UHGV virus genome: UHGV-0195539
Strand: one strand, 5' to 3'
DNA from: a virus
DNA: 37,850 bases
Below the pieces are notes generated by a model. The model did not search any database. It saw only the letters and a program-made list of their open reading frames with translations, and was not told the origin of the DNA. Of the stretch, positions 1 to 24,921 are shown piece after piece. The position numbers were made by a program, and so were the translations under genes. Each line of letters begins with the position of its first letter. Position 1 is the stretch's first letter.

Positions 1-134
1 TTACACTGCAAGAACGCCGCAAATTCTGACCACATGATGTTAAGTCTGAACTCACACGGCGAACGGTGTATCATCCAGATGGCCAACAACATGGTTAAGC
101 ATAAAATGCTCACGATGATCGTTTTTTGCGGCAT
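1..134 (-). CDS. hypothetical small membrane protein, N-terminal part only (runs off window start)
   Basis: ATG at 134..132 preceded by AAAGGAG-type SD; frame open to window edge; begins MPQKTIIVSILCLTMLLAIWMI. Absent from ORF track because no stop in window. Confidence 0.3.
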   Translation of the reverse strand, partial: MPQKTIIVSILCLTMLLAIWMIHRSPCEFRLNIMWSEFAAFLQC

Positions 135-268
135 AGCGCTTGACTCCTTTTACAGGGAGGCGCTAACCTTCCACTTGTCTAGGGTAGGAATGGTTAGGGC
201 CTCGGGTTAAACAATATGTTTGACTCGGGGCCTTTCCACATCCGGCCTTCAGGTTTTCCTTCCAGCCG

Positions 269-571
269 TCAGCCGAAAGGCACCCGCGCGTAATGTACTG
301 GTTTTAAAGCCATACCGCAATCCTCCAGTTGTAGCGTTAACTGACTGCGTCCCTGATGGGATTTGCGCATTGTCTCCCGTGGAATATCTTTATCGTGGAA
401 GATCAACTGAGGCTGGCCAATAATTCTGTGCACACTTTCCATTGTTGAAAATGTGGCGCTGCACTCAAGGTTATTGCACTGATAGTATTTGTAGCGGATG
501 GTGCCGGTATCATTGGCGGCTTTACTGGTACGGATCCGGGCAGATGCGCCGCAGAATGGACAATGAAACAT
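269..571 (-). CDS. ogr: Ogr/Delta-family zinc-finger late transcription activator
   Basis: Internal Met of track ORF 269..646 starts MFHCPFCG...YYQCNNLECSATF, the Cys4 Ogr signature. About 100 aa, longer than the 72-aa P2 Ogr. Confidence 0.85.
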   Translation of the reverse strand: MFHCPFCGASARIRTSKAANDTGTIRYKYYQCNNLECSATFSTMESVHRIIGQPQLIFHDKDIPRETMRKSHQGRSQLTLQLEDCGMALKPVHYARVPFG

Positions 572-11284: not shown

Positions 11285-11877
11285 TTCGGCCCCCCTGTCA
11301 TGCTTCCGCCGGACTGAACACCGTTATGAACGTGCGTATGCACGGTAACACCATTTGAGCGTAAGTTTCCGTTACTGTGTGTGATATCCCCTTTCATGGT
11401 GCCACCGTCAGTCAGTTCAAACGTCCTGGCCTTCAGATGTTTTGTGCACTCTACGGCCGGTGTGTCCAGGGTAATACGTGTTTCCGCAGAGATCTCTGCG
11501 GTTTTGATTCCTTTCACCGTCAGCGCGCCTTTTTCTGCGTCATAGCGTATCTCGGCACCGTCAGGTGCAAGGAGTATCACTTCATTCTGTTTTGTGCCGG
11601 GCGCCGGGTGTTCTTCGCTGTAGAGACTGCCAGCCACAACGGCCATTTCAGGACTGCCGCCCGGGCAGAGCAACAGCACCTGTTCACCGGGGGAGGGGGG
11701 CAGCCAGATTTTAAACGCCCCGGCGCGTGTGCAGTTCCAGCGGAGCCAGTCCGTTGTCAGTCCGCCGCTGGTAGCGCGAATGCGCCAGTTTTTCAGATCC
11801 ACCTCCGAAACGACGCCGGTGCGGACCATGTTTTCCAGCAGTCGCATGATTTCAGCATTCAACGGGTGTTTCTCCAC
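11281..11877 (-). CDS. V: baseplate spike/assembly protein V
   Basis: NMVRTG, TDWL, GEQVLLL, RITLDTP, GGTMKG, SNG, HTH matches to P2 gpV; start may be GTG at 11877 or ATG at 11847. Confidence 0.8.
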   Translation of the reverse strand: MEKHPLNAEIMRLLENMVRTGVVSEVDLKNWRIRATSGGLTTDWLRWNCTRAGAFKIWLPPSPGEQVLLLCPGGSPEMAVVAGSLYSEEHPAPGTKQNEVILLAPDGAEIRYDAEKGALTVKGIKTAEISAETRITLDTPAVECTKHLKARTFELTDGGTMKGDITHSNGNLRSNGVTVHTHVHNGVQSGGSMTGGPK

Positions 11878-12503
11878 AGGTTGTTGATAATGATTTCCGT
11901 CACTTTCTGTCTGTCGGCTTCACTGAATCCCAGCAGTTCGCGTTGCGGATAGCGGACGGCATTACCGGCAGAGACCAGTGACACTTCGCCGAACTGATGA
12001 ACGCGGGCAATGCGGGCTGCGCGGCCTTCAAATCCCACGCTGACGCCGCCGGGATCGGTTTTTACCTTCAGAAAGCGGTTTGTCCGAAGCTGCTCAAACA
12101 TGGGTGGACGCTTAATGGCGCTCTGCGTTCGCCTGCGGGTGTCAATTTCCAGGTATTCTTCAATATCGGCTTTGTGGAACGAGCGTATTCCCCGGCGCTC
12201 CGTGTCGTAACCGGTGATCATGGGGCCGTACCGGCCGGTTGTTGTCCGCCAGTTTTTCAGTCGTCTCACCTGAGTGCCGTTCCAGATGAACACCACACCT
12301 GCCTGGACACGGAATACACGTTTTTTACGGGCGGGCCACCGGTTACCGTCCGGTGATTGTTGCGAACGTATACGCTTTTGTTGCGCGGCGCGGACAGCCT
12401 GACCGACAGCACGTGCTGTTTTGTTTATACCGGCAGCGGACAGACCACTGAGGATCTCCTGAAAGAGACCGTCCAGTCTGTGCAGGTCATCCGGAGCCAT
12501 CAT
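11859..12503 (-). CDS. S: tail completion / virion morphogenesis protein S
   Basis: Position between R and V; ARIARVHQFGE-type C-terminal motif typical of virion morphogenesis proteins; internal Met chosen, start uncertain. Confidence 0.65.
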   Translation of the reverse strand: MMAPDDLHRLDGLFQEILSGLSAAGINKTARAVGQAVRAAQQKRIRSQQSPDGNRWPARKKRVFRVQAGVVFIWNGTQVRRLKNWRTTTGRYGPMITGYDTERRGIRSFHKADIEEYLEIDTRRRTQSAIKRPPMFEQLRTNRFLKVKTDPGGVSVGFEGRAARIARVHQFGEVSLVSAGNAVRYPQRELLGFSEADRQKVTEIIINNLWRNTR

Positions 12504-12954
12504 TCTGACCCCATGTGACATCTTCGAGGGTGACGCGCCATGCTTCCAGGGCCCGGCTGACAGGCGGCTCTCCGATGTGTTCTGCGTGAACAGTGCCATC
12601 ATCATTACGGCGGATAATCACCCGCTCCCATACCGGGATTTCCAGCAGGATATCGGTGCTGTCGTCGTCATTGATGGCAACAGAAAATTTGATATCCCTG
12701 TTTTTCTCCGGATTAAGCAGGAGATCAGGCTGATTGCGGTACAGCCAGCGCATCAGCGGCACCATCAGTTCATCGAGATCCTGCGTGAAGTCCATGACAA
12801 AGATCCCAAGCGTGTAACGGTAAAGATATGAGGGGGATTCGCCGGTCGTCTCAATGCCTCCGTTATTCACATACACAGTGAATTTCTCCGGGTTGGCGCG
12901 ACACCATGGGCAGGCGTCAGTCATGGCGTCGCGCAGGGTGTTAATTTTCAGCAT
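12487..12954 (-). CDS. R: tail completion protein R
   Basis: 155-aa ORF with MLK...LR...TDA start, NGG and RNQPDL resembling P2 gpR; AGGAGGGGG SD. Confidence 0.8.
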   Translation of the reverse strand: MLKINTLRDAMTDACPWCRANPEKFTVYVNNGGIETTGESPSYLYRYTLGIFVMDFTQDLDELMVPLMRWLYRNQPDLLLNPEKNRDIKFSVAINDDDSTDILLEIPVWERVIIRRNDDGTVHAEHIGEPPVSRALEAWRVTLEDVTWGQNDGSG

Positions 12955-12969
12955 GCCCCCTCCTGTGTG

Positions 12970-13143
12970 TTATGGCATGTTCTGGTTGTTCTGTTGTGCA
13001 GACTTCTGACTGATTTTTTCAGCGGCGCGCTCGTCAATTTTTCGCTGAAAATAATTTCTGATAACACTGTAACCGCCGCTGATCAGATACAGCGCGCAGA
13101 CGGCAGTACATAAATACAGCATGATCTGATGAATGAATAACAT
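12970..13143 (-). CDS. hypothetical small single-pass membrane protein
   Basis: 57-aa product from internal ATG with GAGGTG SD; one hydrophobic helix followed by a charged tail. No P2 counterpart at this position. Confidence 0.4.
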   Translation of the reverse strand: MLFIHQIMLYLCTAVCALYLISGGYSVIRNYFQRKIDERAAEKISQKSAQQNNQNMP

Positions 13144-13289
13144 AATCACCTCACACAAATGATTGACATAACGATGTCTGGCGTTTTAAAAAAAATGAAT
13201 AACAATAATAAACACTCTCCATAATTCCTCTTGCGCTCCCGTCAGGTATCTTTTCCTCTCAGTCTTGCCTGCCGGGAGCCTCTTTTTTC

Positions 13290-15335
13290 TTATGCGGCGT
13301 TGCTGTTATTGATATCCACCGTCACATACTCAATCAGCACGGGGTAGGTGTCCTTGTTACTGGTGATATCCGTGATCAGCAGTTTGTCGTTATCCAGTCC
13401 TGCCGCCGGGCATTTCGCCAGATTAAAGGCCGCCTGGGTCTGACCGTTGATGACCGGTGTCACGCTGATGCTGTTATTTCCGGCAAACCGGAACACCACG
13501 TTGTGCCAGTTATGATTAAATGCCCCGAAGGTTCCCAGTTTTGCATTCTGTTGTTTGTGCTGCATCAGATTCAGGTTTGCGCTGTCGCTCTGGATGAAGA
13601 AGGCGGCCAGCATATCGTTTCCTGCGCTGCCTTCCAGAACAACGTTTTCAGGTAGCTGAGAAACCGGCCAGTGCAGAGCCATGGCGAAGCGGTTTTCTGC
13701 CAGCTGAACACCTTCCGGGATTTTGAAACGAAAGGCAATTTCCCCGCCTTTCTGAAGTAATTCAGCTGCTTTACTTGCAGGCACATCGTGGGCGATTTTC
13801 CAGGCTGTTTGTTGCCCCTGGACTTTTTCCACTCGCATGGCTTTACCGCTCTGAGCAGCAGAGTCATTTACGACGGAGGCTTTTCCATCTGCCCCTGTCC
13901 AGCCCTGTTCTTTCAGTTTCCCTTCCTGTGCGTCTGCGCGATAAGCGACGGCCGTTGTTCTTGCCGGTGATGACTGCGTACCTGCGCCCGGCTGAGGTGC
14001 AGGTGTGTAGGGCTGCGGGCTTTCCGTGGTGGTGCTGTCTGAACCGGCCGTGGCGGGAGGTACTGCGACCACGCTGAACGGTGCGGGTGCACCTTTCAGG
14101 AAGGCGACGGTCTTCCCGGCATGCATCAGGATCGCCGTTGCCAGGCGGTCAGAAATAATGCCGCGGCGGGCCCATGAACTGAAATGCGTGGCGCGATCTG
14201 AAGAGGTCCAGTTTCCGTTACTACGGGATGCAGCACCGTAATAACCGGCTTCTGCCAGGTCAGGATCTTCGGCAGGCAGGTTTGTTGGCGTGTTAGCACC
14301 TTTCTCATCGGTCATCAGGGGCACAAAATAAATTTTTTGCGCTTCTTTGTTCTGATATGCACCGTAAACCACCGGGTACTGAGAGGTATATTGTTGTTTC
14401 CAGATATAGGTGGTATCGCCGCAAATCCAGGGAACAAGTGATGCGTTGCCTCCGGTGCACTGTGCAGCATATGCGCTGAGATCGGCGCGGAACTGATTCA
14501 CCATGTTCAGGAATAATTGCGGGTGCTGTGCGTATGTTGCTGATTTCAGATCAAACTCTCCCAGCATCCAGACCACGGATAACAGGACGTTTTTGGGGTT
14601 TTTATCCAGCGCGGCTTTTGTACGGGTAAGCAGATCGTTATACAGCGGTTTGCCGACGCCCCACAGGGATGATTCGGCCGTTGCTCCTGAAGATTCACTG
14701 AATGCCCCCTCAGCGCCGGAAGTAAGCGCTGACCCTCCACGACAGCAAGGTACCAGGAGGATCCCTGCATTTTTCGGGATAAACGCCAGTAATTTTTTGG
14801 CAATATGTAAACCCTGTCCGACGCAGCCATACTGACCTTTTGACAGATCGGCGTTCGGATGATTAAGGCTGCTCATATCCTGTACATCATGGAGACAGTG
14901 ATCTGCCGGAATAATATCGTTATAGGTACATGCAGCGCCGCCCGGTGTTACCGTACTGCGACGCGCTAACTGTTTAATTCGTGGATCAGGACTGTCGAAT
15001 GTATCGGGTAATGGCAGCCCCTCACCGTATGCCATGCCATTGGACTGACCAGCCAGTGGCACCACATAATAAAACTCTGGCTCAGTTGTGTGTCCAGTGT
15101 CGTATCCGTCGGTAGTGCCCGGTACGGGGTTTTCCTCGCCTTTTGGTACCGGAATGGCTGATGGCAGGTCTCTGTCAGTGACCAGTGCCTGCATCAGGTA
15201 AAATGGTGCTCCCGGCTCTGATGCTGAGACAGGTCCCCCAAGAAGTCCCCATCCTTCCCTGAGCATGGGCGCAAGTTTTTCGGCAAGTTCCTTGTTCGTC
15301 ATTGCCGTCACAAGCTGATAATGTTTCGGTACCAT
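13290..15335 (-). CDS. NanS-p-like sialate O-acetylesterase (SASA/SGNH-type esterase domain) with N- and C-terminal extensions
   Basis: GQSNG motif (PLAGQSNGMAYGEG) characteristic of SASA 9-O-acetylesterases; N-terminal YQLVTAMT...GW region resembles the DUF1737 domain of Stx-phage NanS-p. Start moved to second Met for GGAG SD. Confidence 0.7.
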   Translation of the reverse strand: MVPKHYQLVTAMTNKELAEKLAPMLREGWGLLGGPVSASEPGAPFYLMQALVTDRDLPSAIPVPKGEENPVPGTTDGYDTGHTTEPEFYYVVPLAGQSNGMAYGEGLPLPDTFDSPDPRIKQLARRSTVTPGGAACTYNDIIPADHCLHDVQDMSSLNHPNADLSKGQYGCVGQGLHIAKKLLAFIPKNAGILLVPCCRGGSALTSGAEGAFSESSGATAESSLWGVGKPLYNDLLTRTKAALDKNPKNVLLSVVWMLGEFDLKSATYAQHPQLFLNMVNQFRADLSAYAAQCTGGNASLVPWICGDTTYIWKQQYTSQYPVVYGAYQNKEAQKIYFVPLMTDEKGANTPTNLPAEDPDLAEAGYYGAASRSNGNWTSSDRATHFSSWARRGIISDRLATAILMHAGKTVAFLKGAPAPFSVVAVPPATAGSDSTTTESPQPYTPAPQPGAGTQSSPARTTAVAYRADAQEGKLKEQGWTGADGKASVVNDSAAQSGKAMRVEKVQGQQTAWKIAHDVPASKAAELLQKGGEIAFRFKIPEGVQLAENRFAMALHWPVSQLPENVVLEGSAGNDMLAAFFIQSDSANLNLMQHKQQNAKLGTFGAFNHNWHNVVFRFAGNNSISVTPVINGQTQAAFNLAKCPAAGLDNDKLLITDITSNKDTYPVLIEYVTVDINNSNAA

Positions 15336-15345
15336 AGTGACTCCG

Positions 15346-15621
15346 TTATTTTTCATGAGTGTTCATTCGTGCTGTCCGCTGCCGCTCCAGCCCGGCAATG
15401 GCGGCTTTATCGGCATTACAACTGTCCAGGGCATCTACCAGTCGGTCTCCCCAGTCAGCCACATCAGCCCATATCATGTGTTGCGGCAGCACCGGTACCG
15501 GTGTCTGTCTGGTCAGACTTTCCGGCACGCTCCCGCAAATGACGCCGGTTTTCAGCGGCGCTGGCGTGTTGTTGCAGGCTGTCAGCAACATCAGCAGGGG
15601 GAGAAGTGCGTGCGCACTCAT
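15346..15621 (-). CDS. o-spanin (Rz1/LysC-like outer-membrane lipoprotein)
   Basis: Signal peptide with lipobox LTAC (MSAHALLPLLMLLTAC); reading frame overlaps the 3' end of the i-spanin gene and extends past it. Confidence 0.6.
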   Translation of the reverse strand: MSAHALLPLLMLLTACNNTPAPLKTGVICGSVPESLTRQTPVPVLPQHMIWADVADWGDRLVDALDSCNADKAAIAGLERQRTARMNTHEK

Positions 15622-15889
15622 CCGCCTGTAAGTTTTTCCGCATCGTTTCACGTCGTTCTTCCCCTCTGGCTGCACGCTCCTGATCTTCGCGCCGGATAGC
15701 GGCCAGCGCTGACTGTGTCTCCGCCGTGGCCTTAAGCAACTCCCGGACGGTCGTATTGCTCTCTTTCACGGCTTTTTCCAGCGCTTCATAACGGGTGCTC
15801 TCCTGACCTGAGCGATAGGCCCGGATGACCACCATTGCCTGCAGCGAAATGGTCAGCAGCAGCGCACAAAGGATAATGTTCAGTTTCAT
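15464..15889 (-). CDS. i-spanin (Rz/LysB-like)
   Basis: N-terminal transmembrane helix then charged coiled-coil region; ATGA overlap with the endolysin stop. Confidence 0.7.
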   Translation of the reverse strand: MKLNIILCALLLTISLQAMVVIRAYRSGQESTRYEALEKAVKESNTTVRELLKATAETQSALAAIRREDQERAARGEERRETMRKNLQADECARTSPPADVADSLQQHASAAENRRHLRERAGKSDQTDTGTGAAATHDMG

Positions 15890-16437
15890 GGCTGCGCTCC
15901 CGCGTCTTTCAGGCACCAGTTCTTAAAATCATTCCGGCGGTTAACCAGTCCCTGCGTGCGCGTTCCGCCACTGTTCACAAAATCTGTCAGCCGGTAACAC
16001 ATGAGGCGCCATTGCCGTGTCTGCGCGTGTTTCCAGATGGTGGTGCGTTGCGGCGTGCCGTTTTTGTTTTTAAACCACATCAGATTCCGGCAGCCCAGGT
16101 TAAAGGCGGCGTCCGTCATGGCTTCGAATGCAGACTGCGGCATCTGCTGCCCCCTGAAATTCTGTGTGATGCAGTTCTCAGCGCGGCGCATATCGTTGAT
16201 CCACCGCCCGGCCACTTCCTCCTGTGTGTACAGGCGGTTTTCCACGTTACCGGTGGATCCGCATCCGACCGTACCGACCCCCACCAGATCACGGTAGGGT
16301 CGGGCCCGGCACTCCTCCCATGTGGCAATTTTGATTTGTGCCTCGCGGGAGGTTCTCAGTTCTCCGGGAGCCAGGGAGATCCCCAGCGCCACAATGGCGG
16401 CCACGGCGTAACGCTTAGGTCCGGCCATCGTGCTCAT
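15886..16437 (-). CDS. endolysin, T4-lysozyme-like (GH24), probable SAR type
   Basis: Catalytic-region motif TWEECRARPYRD...GVGTVGCG (Glu/Asp/Thr triad pattern); Ala/Gly-rich weakly hydrophobic N-terminus (AVAAIVALGISLAPG) typical of a SAR anchor. Confidence 0.85.
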   Translation of the reverse strand: MSTMAGPKRYAVAAIVALGISLAPGELRTSREAQIKIATWEECRARPYRDLVGVGTVGCGSTGNVENRLYTQEEVAGRWINDMRRAENCITQNFRGQQMPQSAFEAMTDAAFNLGCRNLMWFKNKNGTPQRTTIWKHAQTRQWRLMCYRLTDFVNSGGTRTQGLVNRRNDFKNWCLKDAGAQP

Positions 16438-16699
16438 CCTGCTTCAGAAGCATCATTGCCCGGCGCTCTGCGTCGTTCAGCTCCCTTCCTTCTGACTGCA
16501 TAAGGATTTTTTCAATCAGTTCGTTGCGCCTTGCCTGGGCGATCTCCATCCTGCGGCGGTGAAGCCAGGCACGAAGCAGTGACAGCGTTCCCAGCACAAA
16601 ACCGGCCACGGCAATTTTTTCGCTCAGCGTCATCACGCCGATACCGGCTGTCGTCACTGACGCCCAGAACGTGATGTGATCACAAAGCCGCTGAAACAT
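16415..16699 (-). CDS. holin, two-TMD (pinholin-like)
   Basis: Two hydrophobic helices then a basic C-terminus; GGGGGTG SD; first gene of the lysis cassette upstream of the SAR endolysin. Confidence 0.65.
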   Translation of the reverse strand: MFQRLCDHITFWASVTTAGIGVMTLSEKIAVAGFVLGTLSLLRAWLHRRRMEIAQARRNELIEKILMQSEGRELNDAERRAMMLLKQDEHDGRT

Positions 16700-16701
16700 T
16701 C

Positions 16702-16902
16702 TCACCCCCACAACTGGATCATTTCACGCCGGGTCTGCCCCTGCAGCTCCGGCAGCTCCACTTCCTGTCCGGCATGCAGAAACATGACGGCTGAAATCCC
16801 CGGATTGGCGGCCAGTACCGCCTCAGTCACCCCCTGCGTGGTGCCGTAATGGCGCTGACAGAGTAAATCGACGGTGTCACCGTCCAGAGCCATTACTTTC
16901 AT
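16702..16902 (-). CDS. X: tail protein X (LysM-like)
   Basis: MKVMALDGDTVDLLCQRHYG...AANPG motif matches P2 gpX. Confidence 0.8.
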   Translation of the reverse strand: MKVMALDGDTVDLLCQRHYGTTQGVTEAVLAANPGISAVMFLHAGQEVELPELQGQTRREMIQLWG

Positions 16903-17396
16903 CAGACCAGCTCCGCATAAATGCGGGTGACACCGCGTATGTCTGATATTGCCCAGCGGGCATCCCGCCACAAATCCTCAACCTGCATGTCCAGCGCGTC
17001 AGCCCTGCGGTCGCCTTTATCGGTGGTATCCACATCCCGGGTGCGCTCCAGTACAAACGCGCGGGTGAGTGCGAAAACGGCCCTGCGGTAGCGGTGGACG
17101 TGTACACTCTCTCCGTTCACCTGCGTGGCCGGAACGTCAGCCAGTGAGGCCGCGCCTTCAGCCATCCGCTCACGTTTCCAGAGCTCCAGTTCGGCGATCA
17201 CATGGGCGACCGCTTCCGTTGCTGCATGTAACAGACGGGTTGTTGTTGTCCTCCCCGGAATGCGGGAAGCCAGGCGAATTTCATGCAGTGAGATCGCCGG
17301 CCAGAAGTCACCCGCGCTCACCATGGCGTCGCCGTCATCGGTGTCGGTGGTATCTGTGTCAGCGCTGTTCACGCGGGGTCTGGCTATCAGACTCAT
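16902..17396 (-). CDS. L: head completion/stabilization protein L
   Basis: 164-aa ORF between M and X with GGAGA SD. Confidence 0.75.
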   Translation of the reverse strand: MSLIARPRVNSADTDTTDTDDGDAMVSAGDFWPAISLHEIRLASRIPGRTTTTRLLHAATEAVAHVIAELELWKRERMAEGAASLADVPATQVNGESVHVHRYRRAVFALTRAFVLERTRDVDTTDKGDRRADALDMQVEDLWRDARWAISDIRGVTRIYAELV

Positions 17397-17500
17397 GCCT
17401 GTCTCCGTAAAAATCAGGCGGTGGGCAACCGGTAAAAAGAACGCGAAGCCTGTTCAGATCACCGGTTGCGCCGCCTGCCGACGAGGTGCGGTTCGTTAAA

Positions 17501-18298
17501 TCAGTTTGTTTTGCGCGCGGCTTTTTTCTGGCTGGCAGCGCTTTTCTTTTTTGCGCTGCTCTTTTTCCCGCCGGTGGTGGTTTTCCTGCCCGTTGTGGAT
17601 GCAGGCACTACCTGATTTCCGTCTGCCAGTTTCCTGACCGCGCGCTCCAGCGTGGCAATTTCACGCTTCACTCCCGAAGCCGGATTGATCCGCATGGCTT
17701 CACGTAACAGGCTCAGCGACAGACGCAGATCATCGGGAGAGGAGGAGGCGCGGCGGGAAAATGCGCGTGCCTTGTGCAGTTTTGACCTGACCTGGTCCGG
17801 CATATCCTGCTCACTGACCAGGTGGTTCAGCTCATCAAGCATGGCGGTGTACACAGACAAATCCGCCTCGCTGTCCGTTGTGGCCTGCGTCAGAACGGCG
17901 TCAGTAATCTCTTCAGCCAGTACCGTGGCGGCGTCACGGCCAAAGTTATCCGGCAGCGCCAGACCATGGCGGATCACGTACTCCCCGATACGCAGTGCCA
18001 GCGGGTAGTCACGGCAGTCAATGGCCCACACCATCATGGTGGTGATGACCTCATCCTGGCGTCCGCTGTCTCCTGCCAGGGTGCCTTCAATCCACCCTTC
18101 AAAGTCAGGCAACAGATGTTTTTTAAGCTCTGCCCTGGCGACGTTTGACTGAATACCCTTCAGCTGCATCTGTGCCAGCCTTAACTGGTGAAGGACCTGT
18201 TCATGTGCGGTTCTTTCCCGTTGTGTTTCCCGGGCGTTCATGGTCACCCGGTTGCGGGCCACCGCCTGTTGCACATAGCGTTGTGCCGGTGTCAGCAT
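17501..18298 (-). CDS. M: terminase endonuclease (small) subunit M
   Basis: N-terminus MLTPAQR and basic Lys-rich C-terminal tail resemble P2 gpM; AGGAG SD. Confidence 0.85.
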   Translation of the reverse strand: MLTPAQRYVQQAVARNRVTMNARETQRERTAHEQVLHQLRLAQMQLKGIQSNVARAELKKHLLPDFEGWIEGTLAGDSGRQDEVITTMMVWAIDCRDYPLALRIGEYVIRHGLALPDNFGRDAATVLAEEITDAVLTQATTDSEADLSVYTAMLDELNHLVSEQDMPDQVRSKLHKARAFSRRASSSPDDLRLSLSLLREAMRINPASGVKREIATLERAVRKLADGNQVVPASTTGRKTTTGGKKSSAKKKSAASQKKAARKTN

Positions 18299-18338
18299 TT
18301 CTCAGCTCCTGTTAACGGGCGCGGCGCGCCCGTCCGGG

Positions 18339-19439
18339 TTATGCTTCGGGTTGCGGCTGTCCGCTTTCGGCGTTGTTGTCCGGATCTTCACCTGCGAAGG
18401 TGATCCCCTCAATCAGCGCGCATTTTCCGTAGTCTTCCACCACGTAGCAGTCATTCATGGACTGGTAAGTCGCGATACGGTTGTATTCCGGCTCCTCGCG
18501 AATGAAACGGCGCAGTGAGCCTTTCTGGAAGTAGATCGACAGGTTTTTCAGCGACGTGATGAGCATGGCGTCTTTCGGGAAGTACGGCGCAAGATACGTC
18601 TGAAGACCACCGACGGTACGGGACGCCACAATCAGCTGCCCGGCAACAAGCTCAGTGTTCGGGTTGGTGGTGCTGATGGCGTTAATCATGGGAAGACGCA
18701 GTGTATTGAACAGATCCCGCCCCATCAGTACGACCAGATCCGGTGCGTCCTTATGCCATTCATCCAGCACGGATGAGCGGATGTCGTGCACCATGGCATC
18801 CGGGTTACCATAGTCACCTTTTGCCACCAGTTTGTTTTCATCATCGCGACGGGTCAGGGTCATCCCTTTAACCACGCGGGTGGCAGCCTTGTCGCGGATG
18901 TGTTTCAGCCAGCCCGGGTTGACGTCCTGCAGGAGAGGGTTAGTGGCACGATCGGAAATCAGCGCGTGTGACTCCCCGTTGAAACCAATCATGATTCGAT
19001 CCAGGGCTACCTGGCGGGTGATTTGCGCGCTCAGCAGTTGCTGAAAGTTTTTCTGGCTGCTCCATGCGTCAATCTGTGCGTAGCTGATGAAGGTATCGTA
19101 GTTCACCTGCTCGCAGCGGTAACGGCGTGCATCCAGATCAGCAACTGATGCAGGATTGCGGCGTTTCACTCCGTCGCTCGTTGCGTTCGTGCTGGCAATG
19201 GGGCCGCTGGTGTCAATCAGGACTTTTTCACCTTCCTGGTCATCCACACCGATAAAATTGATTTCCTGTAACAGTCCGGCGCTTTCCTTGATGGCGTTCT
19301 CCATCTTCTGCTGAATGGATGGATCCACGCTGAAGGTTTTACCCAGGCGCTCTGTTGTGATACCAGCCAGCGATGCCTGCTGAATCATATAGCGTTCCAG
19401 ACTGTCACGTCCTTCACGGGAAAGGGATAAACGGGCCAT
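18339..19439 (-). CDS. N: major capsid protein N
   Basis: IMIGFNG, SDR, NPLLQDV, GWL, EWHKDAPDLVV, YFP, AMLITSLKNLSIY, YVVEDY match P2 gpN. Confidence 0.9.
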   Translation of the reverse strand: MARLSLSREGRDSLERYMIQQASLAGITTERLGKTFSVDPSIQQKMENAIKESAGLLQEINFIGVDDQEGEKVLIDTSGPIASTNATSDGVKRRNPASVADLDARRYRCEQVNYDTFISYAQIDAWSSQKNFQQLLSAQITRQVALDRIMIGFNGESHALISDRATNPLLQDVNPGWLKHIRDKAATRVVKGMTLTRRDDENKLVAKGDYGNPDAMVHDIRSSVLDEWHKDAPDLVVLMGRDLFNTLRLPMINAISTTNPNTELVAGQLIVASRTVGGLQTYLAPYFPKDAMLITSLKNLSIYFQKGSLRRFIREEPEYNRIATYQSMNDCYVVEDYGKCALIEGITFAGEDPDNNAESGQPQPEA

Positions 19440-19456
19440 AAATTACTCTTCTCCTG

Positions 19457-20293
19457 TCAGAATTCAGCCAGTGTCTGGTCAGTGCCGCCAGCGGAAGTAA
19501 AACGCTGCTGTGGATCGGCATCCTGGTTTCTCAGTTGCGCTTTCAGTGCTGCAAGCTCGTGACTGAGCTCATCCAGCGCCGTTTTGTCGAGGGCATGTTT
19601 CTGCTCCAGAGTGCTGAAACGGTCGATAAGATCTGCATGATCGGATGCGATGTTTTCCACAACGTCGCGCAGCTGGCTGAACTGCTCGCCATCCGCTGTG
19701 CGTGTTTTGCTGATGAGTGCCATGACGCGGCTGAACCACTGACGGCTCTCTTCCGTTCGCTGTTCTGTGGTGGTAAGCATCTCTGCTTCCATGGCGACGG
19801 TGAACATGGGGGGTTCTGTTGTGCACTTACTGAACTGCATGATGCTGGCGCGTTGCTGTGCGGCAAACTCCAGGCGTTCAGTGCCCAGACTTGCTGGCGT
19901 GTCGGTCATTGCCAGACCCACAATGTAAGGCCCCTTGACGGCGTCCAGCTCAGGCAACATCTCAATGCTCGAATACACTTTTTTCCCGTCAGCAATCATG
20001 TTTTTCATGCGGTCGGTGGGTTCAATTTCGGCATATAACGCTGTACGCCCTGCCAGTTTCCCTTCGGTGATTTCATCAGTTGACAGAGCGATCAGATCAC
20101 CCACTGCGCAGAGTTCACTGGATGGCCACATCGAAAGGACGTGCTCAATGTTCACCCGGGAGGCGTAAACGGACGGGTCATAGTTTTCTGCGGCCTGACG
20201 CAGCATTTCACCAGAAATTTCACGTCCGTCGATGGTTGAACCGGAAACGGCAACGCGAAATTTTTTGCGCTCTGGCGTGTTTTTGCTTCCCAT
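19457..20293 (-). CDS. O: capsid scaffolding protein O
   Basis: KKFRVAVSGSTIDGREISGEM, PTD, GLAMTDTPASLGTERLEF match P2 gpO; internal ATG with GGAGAA SD. Confidence 0.85.
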   Translation of the reverse strand: MGSKNTPERKKFRVAVSGSTIDGREISGEMLRQAAENYDPSVYASRVNIEHVLSMWPSSELCAVGDLIALSTDEITEGKLAGRTALYAEIEPTDRMKNMIADGKKVYSSIEMLPELDAVKGPYIVGLAMTDTPASLGTERLEFAAQQRASIMQFSKCTTEPPMFTVAMEAEMLTTTEQRTEESRQWFSRVMALISKTRTADGEQFSQLRDVVENIASDHADLIDRFSTLEQKHALDKTALDELSHELAALKAQLRNQDADPQQRFTSAGGTDQTLAEF

Positions 20294-23296: not shown

Positions 23297-23800
23297 TTAA
23301 CGGAATGCGGATGGCGTTCTTCTTTGCAGCTTGCTGATAATATGCATCTTCATACTGTTTACTATCGGCAGCCATTCCCTGTCACCGTCTCCGTTGATGA
23401 CCACGCGAATGGAGGTATCATCTTCCACGCGAACCCGAAGAGATACACCGTCTTTTCCGACGGAATGTAACTCCATTGCCAGGACTATGTTTACCGACTC
23501 TCCTTCATCGTGTGAGTCAACCCATGTTCTTACAGCCATCCGGAATATGTTATCTGTGTCGGTTGCAATCATATTTACCGGAAATGGCCTGAAGTCCCGA
23601 TCGTTTCTGCACGGAAACCCCGTATCAACGTAACGATGATGCTCGCCGTCTTTGTCTTCCCATGTCTCTGAAGGCAATTCCAGCCACTGCTCATAAAAAG
23701 CAACCAGCTTTTCAGCCTGATTGCGCAGAATCCCTGTAACCTCCCGCCTCGCGTCCCGGCTCTTTTTGTTTGCCAGGTACAAATCGCGAAAATGGCTCAT
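23297..23800 (-). CDS. hypothetical protein (orphan cargo gene, 167 aa)
   Basis: Clean ORF with its own upstream intergenic region, converging on Q; no family recognised from sequence. Confidence 0.55.
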   Translation of the reverse strand: MSHFRDLYLANKKSRDARREVTGILRNQAEKLVAFYEQWLELPSETWEDKDGEHHRYVDTGFPCRNDRDFRPFPVNMIATDTDNIFRMAVRTWVDSHDEGESVNIVLAMELHSVGKDGVSLRVRVEDDTSIRVVINGDGDREWLPIVNSMKMHIISKLQRRTPSAFR

Positions 23801-24336
23801 GTCGCTCTCCTTTGGTCTGTTTATGCCAGCCTGTATTCTGCGCTCACCTCATATTGTGCGCAAGTTTTCACCCGTGAATGACTGATACTTTAAATTCTAT
23901 TAACTTTATGATTTCAGTGATTTTTGTCTCTCTTTTTTATCCCGTTCGTCACGTCCGTTTCCCTCCCGATCTCCGACCTCGCCAGACGCAATCAGACGCA
24001 TTCTGACGGCCTGTTTCCCTGACCATGTTTTGATGTGGTTTTTCAAAACTGACTTTACTGCGTGCGTATCACGCGCCATACGACCCCAAATAAAGCAACC
24101 CGCCTTCCATCCCTCAATTCGGGCGCCCTTCCCTCGTCGCCTGCGCGCTGCAATTGCCTCGTTTTTCGTGCACCGTGCAAACCGGCCTCAGCCAGCGCCG
24201 TTACCGGGCGGAATGGGGAAAAAGTACATTAGAAAAATTGTGCAATTTCGTGCGCTTTTGTGCAGTTTTGATCTTGCGATTTTTTGTGGCAGGTGGTGAT
24301 GATATTCATCTGTCTGAATCAGTGGGAGACTGCCGG

Positions 24337-24882
24337 GTGAGAACTGTGAAAAATTACTCATATCCTTATTTAACTTTTGTCACGCTTTCTGTTTTGGGGG
24401 GGATTTTTCTTTTTATTTGGTGGCGAAACGATGTTTACAGAATTACCTACCTTTATTCGTTCACGACAAACTGCCTTGTTTCAGTGTCTGTGGTGCTTTC
24501 GGTTTTTGTCTCACTGTGCCTGTTGAAAAAGAACCTGGTTGATCGGTCTAAATTTACCGGGGTTACATCGTATCTTAAGTTTTTTTCGGGTATGTGCCTT
24601 CTTACCTGGATGATTCTGTTTACCCTCCTGGTTACGCTGATATATTTTCTTCCGGGTGAAGATTCATTCTATTCCGCTCCCTATGAGTACAGTCGCGGTA
24701 GCTCAAAAAGTTGTTCAGGGGCATTTGTTGATGATCCTGATTTGCAAAAAACAATATTTATTTGCTACCCATACGGTGACTATCAGGATGGTAATGTGAT
24801 TTATGTGAAGAAGCGTGTGAATGCGCTGGGGGCGGTGGTCACCTATGCATACGCGACAAGCGGCCGATTTCGGTTTGACTGA
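24337..24882 (+). CDS. hypothetical multi-pass membrane protein with C-terminal soluble domain (about 181 aa)
   Basis: About three hydrophobic helices then a 75-aa Tyr/Gly-rich tail. Visibly AT-rich relative to neighbours. Track ORF begins at an upstream TTG; GTG with GGGAG SD preferred, start uncertain. Confidence 0.5.
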   Translation: MRTVKNYSYPYLTFVTLSVLGGIFLFIWWRNDVYRITYLYSFTTNCLVSVSVVLSVFVSLCLLKKNLVDRSKFTGVTSYLKFFSGMCLLTWMILFTLLVTLIYFLPGEDSFYSAPYEYSRGSSKSCSGAFVDDPDLQKTIFICYPYGDYQDGNVIYVKKRVNALGAVVTYAYATSGRFRFD

Positions 24883-24897
24883 AAAAAGAAATCCTGT

Positions 24898-24921
24898 GTT
24901 ACCCTCGCTGCTGAGGGTAAC
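24898..24921 (-). terminator. rho-independent terminator closing the replication operon
   Basis: Perfect 9-bp inverted repeat GTTACCCTC-GCTGCT-GAGGGTAAC followed on the minus strand by a T-rich run. Confidence 0.55.

Follow-up and report, generated by a model that had tools for sequence, protein, structure and literature searches.

A NanS-p-type sialate O-acetylesterase gene with a candidate backbone-matched adaptor domain in the late operon of a P2-family Escherichia coli prophage clade

What is a sialate O-acetylesterase gene doing among the lysis and tail genes of a P2-family phage? The question is raised by UHGV virus genome UHGV-0195539, a stretch of 37,850 nucleotides (nt; the whole stretch is termed the window) that corresponds to approximately one complete P2-family prophage and that in Escherichia coli LZSFT34 adjoins serS. 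Between the spanin genes and tail completion gene R, the window carries the coding sequence (CDS) of a 681-amino-acid (aa) NanS-p-type sialate O-acetylesterase, organized as DUF1737, an SASA/SGNH catalytic domain, a linker and DUF6645 (13290..15335; assigned by open reading frame (ORF), Pfam, PHROG, PDB and RefSeq). This gene and the other features of the window located below lie on the minus strand unless otherwise indicated. Domain and genome comparisons make it on balance probable that a functional esterase of this type is a fixed late gene of one P2-family E. coli prophage clade, equipped with a DUF1737 adaptor matched to the phage backbone.

The first step toward an answer is the protein itself. 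The ORF comprises 2046 nt (681 aa plus the stop codon) and begins with the ATG at 15335, with a Shine-Dalgarno sequence read as GGAG 5 nt upstream (15341..15344). The TAA stop codon of lysC occupies 15348-15346, which leaves a spacing of 10 nt to the esterase ATG. An alternative ATG at 15356, which would yield 688 aa, was rejected; it has no Shine-Dalgarno sequence and is the start of none of the homologs. In E. coli LZSFT34, this CDS is labeled "DUF6645 domain-containing protein" in RefSeq (WP_196612864.1). A first-pass annotation of the window had given these gene coordinates, the 681-aa length, a GQSN motif (aa 96-99) and a DUF1737-like N-terminus, all of which are correct by ORF and Pfam analysis.

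Pfam places DUF1737 at aa 4-53 (E = 1.9e-7) and additionally detects SASA (E = 2.1e-9) and DUF6645 (E = 9e-40), all three above the gathering score, and the same domain order is found by Pfam in four other P2-family alleles. The protein is matched end to end by phrog_143 (E = 1e-294). Among PDB entries, E. coli NanS/YjhS (3PT5) matches aa 84-404 (E = 5.8e-119) and the C-domain of phi24B NanS-p (6YP6) matches aa 460-676 (E = 8.7e-60). The N-terminal DUF1737 domain (PF08410; aa 4-53), of a variant described below as class B, is encoded at 15177..15326; it scores 31.3 bits against a cut-off of 24 and is also matched by phrog_2036. The SGNH/SASA catalytic domain (aa 84-404), delimited by the 3PT5 alignment and its invariant columns, is encoded at 14124..15086. 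It is joined by a Pro/Thr/Ser-rich interdomain linker (aa 405-459; 13959..14123), which contains the motif SSP at aa 455-457, to a C-terminal DUF6645 domain (PF20350; aa 460-681; 13293..13958), a lectin-like beta-sandwich. In a full-length AlphaFold2 (AF2) model with a mean predicted local distance difference test score (pLDDT) of 63, the C-domain is a confident all-beta sandwich (pLDDT 80-90), and the linker falls below 50.

The catalytic equipment can be read from the alignment to 3PT5. Block I is GQSN (aa 96-99, aligned to GQSNA 17-21 of 3PT5), with the codon of Ser98 at 15042-15044; by the 3PT5 block definitions, Block II is RGGS (aa 199-202), Block III is MLGEFD (aa 257-262) and Block V is THFSS, with the codon of His384 at 14184-14186. 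Residues S98, R199, G200, S202, G259, E260 and H384 are invariant in 19 aligned alleles, as is the whole of GQSN, with its nucleophilic Ser and adjacent oxyanion Gln. These invariant residues map onto the 3PT5 blocks and describe an enzyme of the Ser-His type, lacking the Block V Asp as NanS does. In 3PT5 the blocks read GQSNA, RGGSAF, MQGEFD and SHFS, and Block V is without Asp (PMC10792757), a picture that agrees with PMC9487903. The NanS-p-type identity proposed in the first-pass annotation is therefore borne out by the DUF1737 and SASA domains, by the matches to 3PT5 and 6YP6, and by the catalytic Ser98 and His384, so that SGNH/SASA residues are not missing from the alignment.

The next step concerns the place of the gene. 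The prophage has the order ogr, tail, baseplate, R and S, lysis, L/M/N/O, P and Q, replication, cox, repressor and integrase, and it follows the late operon order of the P2 family (Peduoviridae), O-N-M-L-X-holin-lysozyme-LysB/LysC-R-S-V-W-J-I plus ogr, cox and int, as annotated by Pfam, PHROG and RefSeq for the identical prophage. The capsid protein of the window is encoded at 18339..19439. The upstream boundary of the insertion is formed by the spanin genes LysB (15464..15889) and, embedded in it, LysC (15346..15555), both identified by PF23793, by the PHROG category of Rz-like spanins and by RefSeq. The downstream boundary is gene R (gpR; 12487..12954; PF06891, E = 5.7e-40). Between the esterase and gpR lies a second co-inserted ORF, overlooked in the first-pass annotation, which encodes a 57-aa DUF1378 protein with one hydrophobic helix (12970..13143; PF07125, E = 5e-26; also a RefSeq CDS). 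The nearest deposited phages are Xuanwuvirus/P88-like, with a gpR only 57% identical. In P88 the slot is empty, and a DUF2570/LysB gene is followed by a 137-nt gap and gpR; it is likewise empty in five relatives from Izhakiella, Enterobacter soli, Mixta and two Erwinia species (gpR 54-57% identical), in which the LysB-like ORF stops 5-25 nt ahead of gpR. Because P88 and these five relatives from other genera run directly from LysB to gpR, the esterase-DUF1378 pair is an insertion relative to the family plan, in agreement with the earlier claim of an extra gene compared with P2.

Given this insertion, is the esterase expressed as a unit of its own or as a late gene? A consensus scan of the coding strand predicted no sigma-70-like promoter in 11800-19600 and no terminator flanking the esterase cassette. 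No Ogr-type TGT-N12-ACA site was found near the cassette, the nearest being in the O/P divergent region (20366) and inside S (12379), and the RNA of the 146-nt spacer 3ʹ of the esterase folds no better than shuffled sequence (z = -1.47). Because only 10 nt separate the gene from lysC and neither promoter nor terminator is predicted, the esterase should, judging from its anatomy, be transcribed with the late structural genes. A terminator in this slot would be polar on R and S, which are called essential. The term "moron", used in the first-pass annotation, thus fits in that the gene is extra DNA compared with the P2 plan, and does not fit as far as an autonomous unit is meant. A classical moron would be expressed autonomously from the repressed prophage to the benefit of the lysogen. 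Such a unit would agree with extra DNA relative to P2, P88 and the five other relatives, with the slightly lower G+C content of the cassette (0.46-0.56 versus 0.55-0.61 in the backbone) and with a lambdoid ancestry that includes the co-travelling DUF1378 gene. It is made very improbable by the coding strand free of predicted promoters and terminators, the short distance to lysC, the polarity that a terminator would exert on R and S, and the presence of the gene in every clade member examined, where polymorphism would be expected of a moron. Lysogenic conversion in the strict sense, also suggested at first, fares no better, since the gene is embedded in a late operon and is fixed in five lineages rather than sporadic.

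The distribution of the gene supports its description as a fixed component. The exact esterase locus occurs in 12 of 5,426 complete E. coli genomes, the same 12 that have the backbone at 99% identity or more, and the clade as a whole is found in approximately 29 of the 5,426. The 90% protein cluster of the esterase holds 744 member sequences. Backbone relatives at approximately 78-81% nt identity all have a DUF1737-SASA-DUF6645 gene in the lysC-to-gpR slot. None of the five E. coli lineages examined has an empty slot; they are the window, L003 (a Logan assembly), L086 (strain Bongo), L087 (strain SCU-172) and L088 (strain G1/2 and 13 similar genomes). The esterase is also present in 16 listed genomes of the L087 and L088 types, and SCU-106 is another carrier strain. 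Nucleotide identity between the window and L003 is 75-82% for the esterase and 75-89% for the flanking structural genes. All three domains are under purifying selection: the ratio of nonsynonymous to synonymous substitution rates (dN/dS), estimated with synonymous sites close to saturation, is 0.04 (DUF1737), 0.05 (catalytic domain) and 0.22 (C-domain). Because its divergence is similar to that of its flanks and dN/dS is low across all three domains, the esterase is, on the evidence of its evolution, an old, retained and selected component of the P2-family clade. A reading of the esterase as a decaying passenger was considered and is ruled out by intact ORFs in five lineages and by the low dN/dS.

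The DUF1378 gene has had a different fate within this backbone. Of the 80 loci with sequence beyond the esterase, nearly all have DUF1378 next, whether the context is lambdoid, P2-family or class C. Three P2-family lineages retain an intact copy; the gene is cut to 37 aa in Bongo (L086:3296-3409) and broken by stop codons in SCU-172 (L087:2437-2736). Because it is shortened in the one and broken in the other, DUF1378 looks like a dispensable hitch-hiker in the P2-family backbone.

The mosaic make-up of the esterase is apparent from comparison with a lambdoid prophage of E. coli 2012EL-2448, in which the order is Q, then further on the esterase, DUF1378, DUF826, holin, lysozyme and Rz. A 2.0-kb block of the window (13085..15084, blastn, no strand assigned) is 94% identical at the nt level to the nanS-p allele of this prophage. 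The block extends from codon 84, at the boundary between DUF1737 and the catalytic domain, to codon 20 of DUF1378, whereas the N-terminal 83 aa of the two proteins are only approximately 26% identical in a domain alignment. In neighbor-joining trees of the separate domains, which covered four of the five P2-family lineages (all but L088), the DUF1737 domains of the P2 family form one clade apart from all lambdoid DUF1737 domains, and the P2-family proteins are scattered among lambdoid and class-C alleles in the trees of the catalytic and C-domains. Catalytic and lectin domains have thus evidently been exchanged with lambdoid nanS-p alleles by recombination, while DUF1737 is clade-specific. The trees give no resolution as to the direction in which the 94% core was exchanged between the P2-family and lambdoid alleles.

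The N-terminal module follows the phage backbone. Classification of 88 loci (80 from IMG/VR and the remainder annotated) gave three classes of N-terminus, and class tracks backbone across the whole set. Class A is a DUF1737 domain beginning M.FKHYDVVRAAS...; it is found in 61 IMG/VR loci and L002, with lambdoid lysis or Q markers where the flank suffices and never with those of P2 or Mu. Class B is a DUF1737 domain beginning MVPKHYQLVTAMT..., together with its relatives, and it occurs in P2-family loci only (the window, L001, L048, L003, L086, L087 and L088). Class C is a 121-aa module with no Pfam or PHROG match, beginning MSDSKWKMLSAMPGEF..., which takes the place of DUF1737 in NanS-p-like esterases; it is found in 17 IMG/VR loci and L004 (for example, L004:8001-10031, L042:3545-5608 and L071:5695-7746). 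Where upstream sequence is available, class-C esterases directly follow Mu-like genes for baseplate, fibre and fibre assembly, and downstream of them DUF1378 is present wherever sequence reaches, followed in some loci by DUF826 and lambdoid-type lysis genes. Two unusual proteins were also encountered. P0131 (294 aa) joins a class-A DUF1737 directly to the DUF6645 lectin-like domain, with the catalytic domain absent, and P0045 (730 aa) is an esterase with an internal tandem duplication of approximately 80 aa in the catalytic domain.

No independent source of the class-B domain was found. An exhaustive HMMER search of 1.84e9 representatives returned no stand-alone relatives of class-B DUF1737, and because the matches were only N-terminal fragments of such esterases, no stand-alone ancestor was identified. 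Class-B DUF1737 was not found in 185,579 species-representative genomes, nor in 50,697 deposited phage genomes, among which the best matches are class A at 39-40% identity; a word-indexed protein search with the 83-aa N-terminus yielded one fragment only. Within the domain, a loop and strand, ASEPGAPFYLMQA (aa 38-50; 15186..15224), is conserved as ASEPGxP[F/W]YLMQA, invariant by alignment in all five P2-family lineages; elsewhere in the class-B domain, identity between the more distant lineages falls to 42-56%. Lambdoid alleles have a shorter loop than the window protein, in which it closes with Phe45-Tyr46. The fold sought in the N-domain was that of the phi24B module, one helix with three antiparallel strands and an anchor loop carrying an aromatic "tooth"; at a pLDDT of only 45-65, AF2 models a strand at aa 6-10, a helix at 14-26, a strand at 29-36, a loop at 37-46 closed by F45/Y46, and a strand at 47-52.

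A precedent for the function of such a domain comes from phi24B, whose gp84, a protein of this family, has been described as a virion protein in a 2026 preprint (10.64898/2026.04.10.717836). Its DUF1737 forms a hexamer in the central pore of the face-centre hexons of a T=9 capsid, where it is anchored by a loop bearing Tyr42, and gp84 is apparently proteolytically processed at SSP-containing linkers, the SSP motifs being candidate self-processing sites (10.64898/2026.04.10.717836). The residues named in the preprint, Ala2, Tyr42, Gly54, Ser57 and SISSP, are exactly those of lambdoid allele L002, the N-terminus of which occurs at 99% identity or more in 206 Stx-phage records. The class-B loop is positionally equivalent to the Tyr42-bearing anchor loop. 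The other possibility raised in the first-pass annotation, a virion-associated cargo, gains indirect support from this account of DUF1737 as a capsid-binding domain and from the specificity of the DUF1737 variant for its backbone. As a separate observation on class-A loci, the subtype of the lambdoid DUF1737 loop may be associated with the family of a large ORF, probably of the terminase or head module, that lies beyond the lysis genes (the AITPYTLMQ-type accompanies F1 in 5 of 7 loci, and the SY.D.G-type accompanies F0 in 7 of 7); this suggestive association among IMG/VR class-A loci L006-L085 is sparse and non-independent and is not relied on here.

Together, these observations suggest a path for the enzyme. 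The esterase would be transcribed only with the late genes after induction and, without a signal peptide, would leave the cell at phage lysis. Once released, it would be expected to strip 7/8/9-O-acetyl groups from mucin sialic acids, as characterized NanS and NanS-p enzymes do. The N-terminal DUF1737 would act as the adaptor fitted to the P2-family backbone and, by analogy with phi24B gp84, would most probably dock the esterase on the hexons of P2-type capsids, in which case virions would carry, at least transiently, a mucin-binding and mucin-modifying enzyme. The adaptor idea draws on the N-terminal class that tracks the backbone, the monophyly of the N-domain, the breakpoint at codon 84, the invariant loop, the lack of stand-alone homologs and the phi24B precedent; docking on a P2-type capsid is plausible as its most economical form.

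Much of this path would also be traveled by a soluble nutritional enzyme with no role in the virion. According to this alternative, a spontaneously induced subpopulation makes the esterase, lysis frees it and sibling lysogens use the O-acetylated sialic acids as a public good, with DUF1737 serving merely for oligomerization or stability. Published work on NanS-p describes growth on Neu5,9Ac2, de-O-acetylation of mucin glycans and induction-dependent expression (PMC8065619, PMC10462455), and the window esterase has the retained catalytic residues, the late-operon position and the lack of a signal peptide, the latter because its N-terminus is DUF1737, that would be expected of such an enzyme. 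However, a stability domain leaves unexplained why the DUF1737 variant is strictly specific to the backbone, why the loop is invariant in a domain that otherwise drifts to 42-53% identity, and why selection on DUF1737 (dN/dS 0.04) is as strong as on the catalytic domain; moreover, the homologous phi24B domain has been observed on the capsid (10.64898/2026.04.10.717836). A purely nutritional role is thus a serious but rather doubtful account.

A role at the cell surface has been raised for NanS-p in a review (PMC8065619), in which case the esterase would aid adsorption by de-O-acetylating polysialic acid (K1) capsule or other surface glycans, so that the P2-type tail reaches its receptor. The gene adjoins tail-completion genes R and S, and every clade member examined has it, which points to an advantage for the phage itself. 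Nevertheless, this role is improbable: neither Pfam nor PHROG detects a tail, fibre or baseplate-attachment domain, the characterized substrates are free and mucin-bound sialic acids, and the sole structural precedent puts the N-domain on the capsid, not the tail (10.64898/2026.04.10.717836).

Several points weigh against the favored reading, that of a functional late esterase with a backbone-matched adaptor. The first concerns function. Block III of the window protein reads W-M-L-G-E-F-D, compared with (H)QGE in SASA and MQGEFD in NanS, so that Leu (codon 258; 14562-14564) replaces the canonical Gln, with Gly and Glu retained. The Block III Gln belongs to a network described for SASA oxyanion holes (PMC9487903). 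The Leu is a subclade trait, found in 44 of 120 collected alleles, lambdoid ones among them, and purifying selection argues that the window protein has retained its function. The remaining points concern the adaptor. The N-domain may remain with its backbone simply because homologous crossovers are possible only at certain places, and no DNA homology exists upstream of codon 84. P2-type capsids are T=7 and have no face-centre hexon, and to our knowledge there is no decoration protein for P2 itself. Conversely, phi24B gp84 binds only the face-centre hexons of its T=9 shell (10.64898/2026.04.10.717836). The SISSP motif beside the phi24B N-domain is absent from the window protein, in which the second SSP (aa 455-457) is present, and AF2 confidence for the N-domain is low. 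Finally, the window protein is known from its sequence, and docking on P2-family capsids would rest on analogy.

A broader proposal, to be taken as tentative, is that NanS-p esterases are modular virion-displayed enzymes with interchangeable capsid or virion adaptors. By extension of the phi24B case, class A would serve lambdoid heads, class B would serve P2-type heads, binding T=7 hexons through ASEPGxP[F/W]YLMQA, and class C would serve phages with Mu-like tails. If true, the P2 family would have in the window esterase its first capsid-decoration protein, which would also be its first glycan-modifying enzyme carried on the virion. Recombination acts here at the level of domains: unrelated phage families trade the enzymatic payload, whereas each backbone keeps its own N-terminal module, as expected of an adaptor that has to fit a virion partner. 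P2-type capsids are well understood and would offer a tractable system in which to ask if DUF1737 docks on capsids in general and if the heads of temperate gut phages bear mucin-directed enzymes. Independent of the virion, the nanS-p gene pool, which has been linked to how pathogenic E. coli uses mucin and fares in the gut, reaches beyond lambdoid and Stx phages into P2-family prophages. The RefSeq label mentions only DUF6645, and surveys of nanS-p dosage therefore miss the P2-family copies.

Elsewhere in the prophage, two variable regions were noted. A low-G+C (0.46-0.48) cargo slot lies between the portal gene and the SSB/MarR genes (23297-24900). In the window it holds two function-unassigned ORFs (one matching phrog_5091, the other of 242 aa with a phrog_1416 C-terminus) and gives no PADLOC hits; in the LZSFT34 prophage, otherwise 99.6% identical, it holds a TumE / HVO_A0114 toxin-antitoxin pair. 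At the ogr end, a hok/gef-type toxin locus is tandemly duplicated (window 1-304; L001:7123-7735), and window 1-304 is 93% identical to the second copy, approximately 470 nt away in LZSFT34.

How, then, does the window gene compare with known systems? Like the cargo genes of the P2 family, it is extra DNA set into a P2-type genome between conserved genes, late or early. The non-essential cargo of P2, such as orf30, old, tin and Z/fun, is typically AT-rich and sporadic among lineages, with its own transcription and with expression in the lysogen. Unlike these genes, the window esterase is embedded in the late operon and conserved across its clade.

The closest relatives are the NanS-p proteins of lambdoid phages, such as phi24B vb_24B_21/gp84 and 933W z1466/L0105. 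In Stx and other lambdoid prophages, NanS-p enzymes remove O-acetyl groups from Neu5,9Ac2 and mucin glycans, support growth of the lysogen and are induced together with the late genes (PMC8065619, PMC10462455). The window protein shares with them the DUF1737-SASA-DUF6645 order with DUF1378 downstream, the SGNH blocks with Ser and His and no Block V Asp, and, as predicted from its sequence, late expression without a signal peptide. Overall it is 55-61% identical to most lambdoid NanS-p alleles, and its catalytic domain is 74-96% identical to three representative ones, with a core 94% identical to one of these at the nt level. It differs in that its backbone is that of a P2-family myovirus rather than a lambdoid phage, and in that the gene follows the spanins and precedes gpR, whereas lambdoid nanS-p lies between Q/stx and holin S. 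Its DUF1737 belongs to a separate clade (23-42% identity across the P2-family/lambdoid pairs compared), has a longer, invariant loop and is not accompanied by SISSP; the Block III Leu in place of Gln is shared with a subset of lambdoid alleles. Chromosomal NanS (YjhS, 3PT5) aligns over the whole length of the catalytic domain, and Blocks I, II and V are identical in kind. However, NanS is a single-domain member of the nan regulon, without DUF1737 or the DUF6645 lectin-like domain, and its Block III is MQGEFD.

Among capsid decoration proteins, the proposed likeness is to T4 Hoc and the phi24B gp84 N-domain, and it would consist of a docking module combined with outward-facing carbohydrate-directed domains; T4 Hoc is cited as a glycan-binding decoration protein in 10.64898/2026.04.10.717836. 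The P2-family case is known here from genes, and its capsid geometry differs from that of phi24B. Among the papers searched, none combines P2-like phages with an O-acetylesterase and only five mention DUF1737; descriptions of how NanS-p varies in its modules are confined to Stx and lambdoid phages (PMC10462455). What is known, then, is the enzyme family; what is new is the phage family in which it occurs, the genomic slot that it occupies and the clade-specific N-terminal module that it carries.

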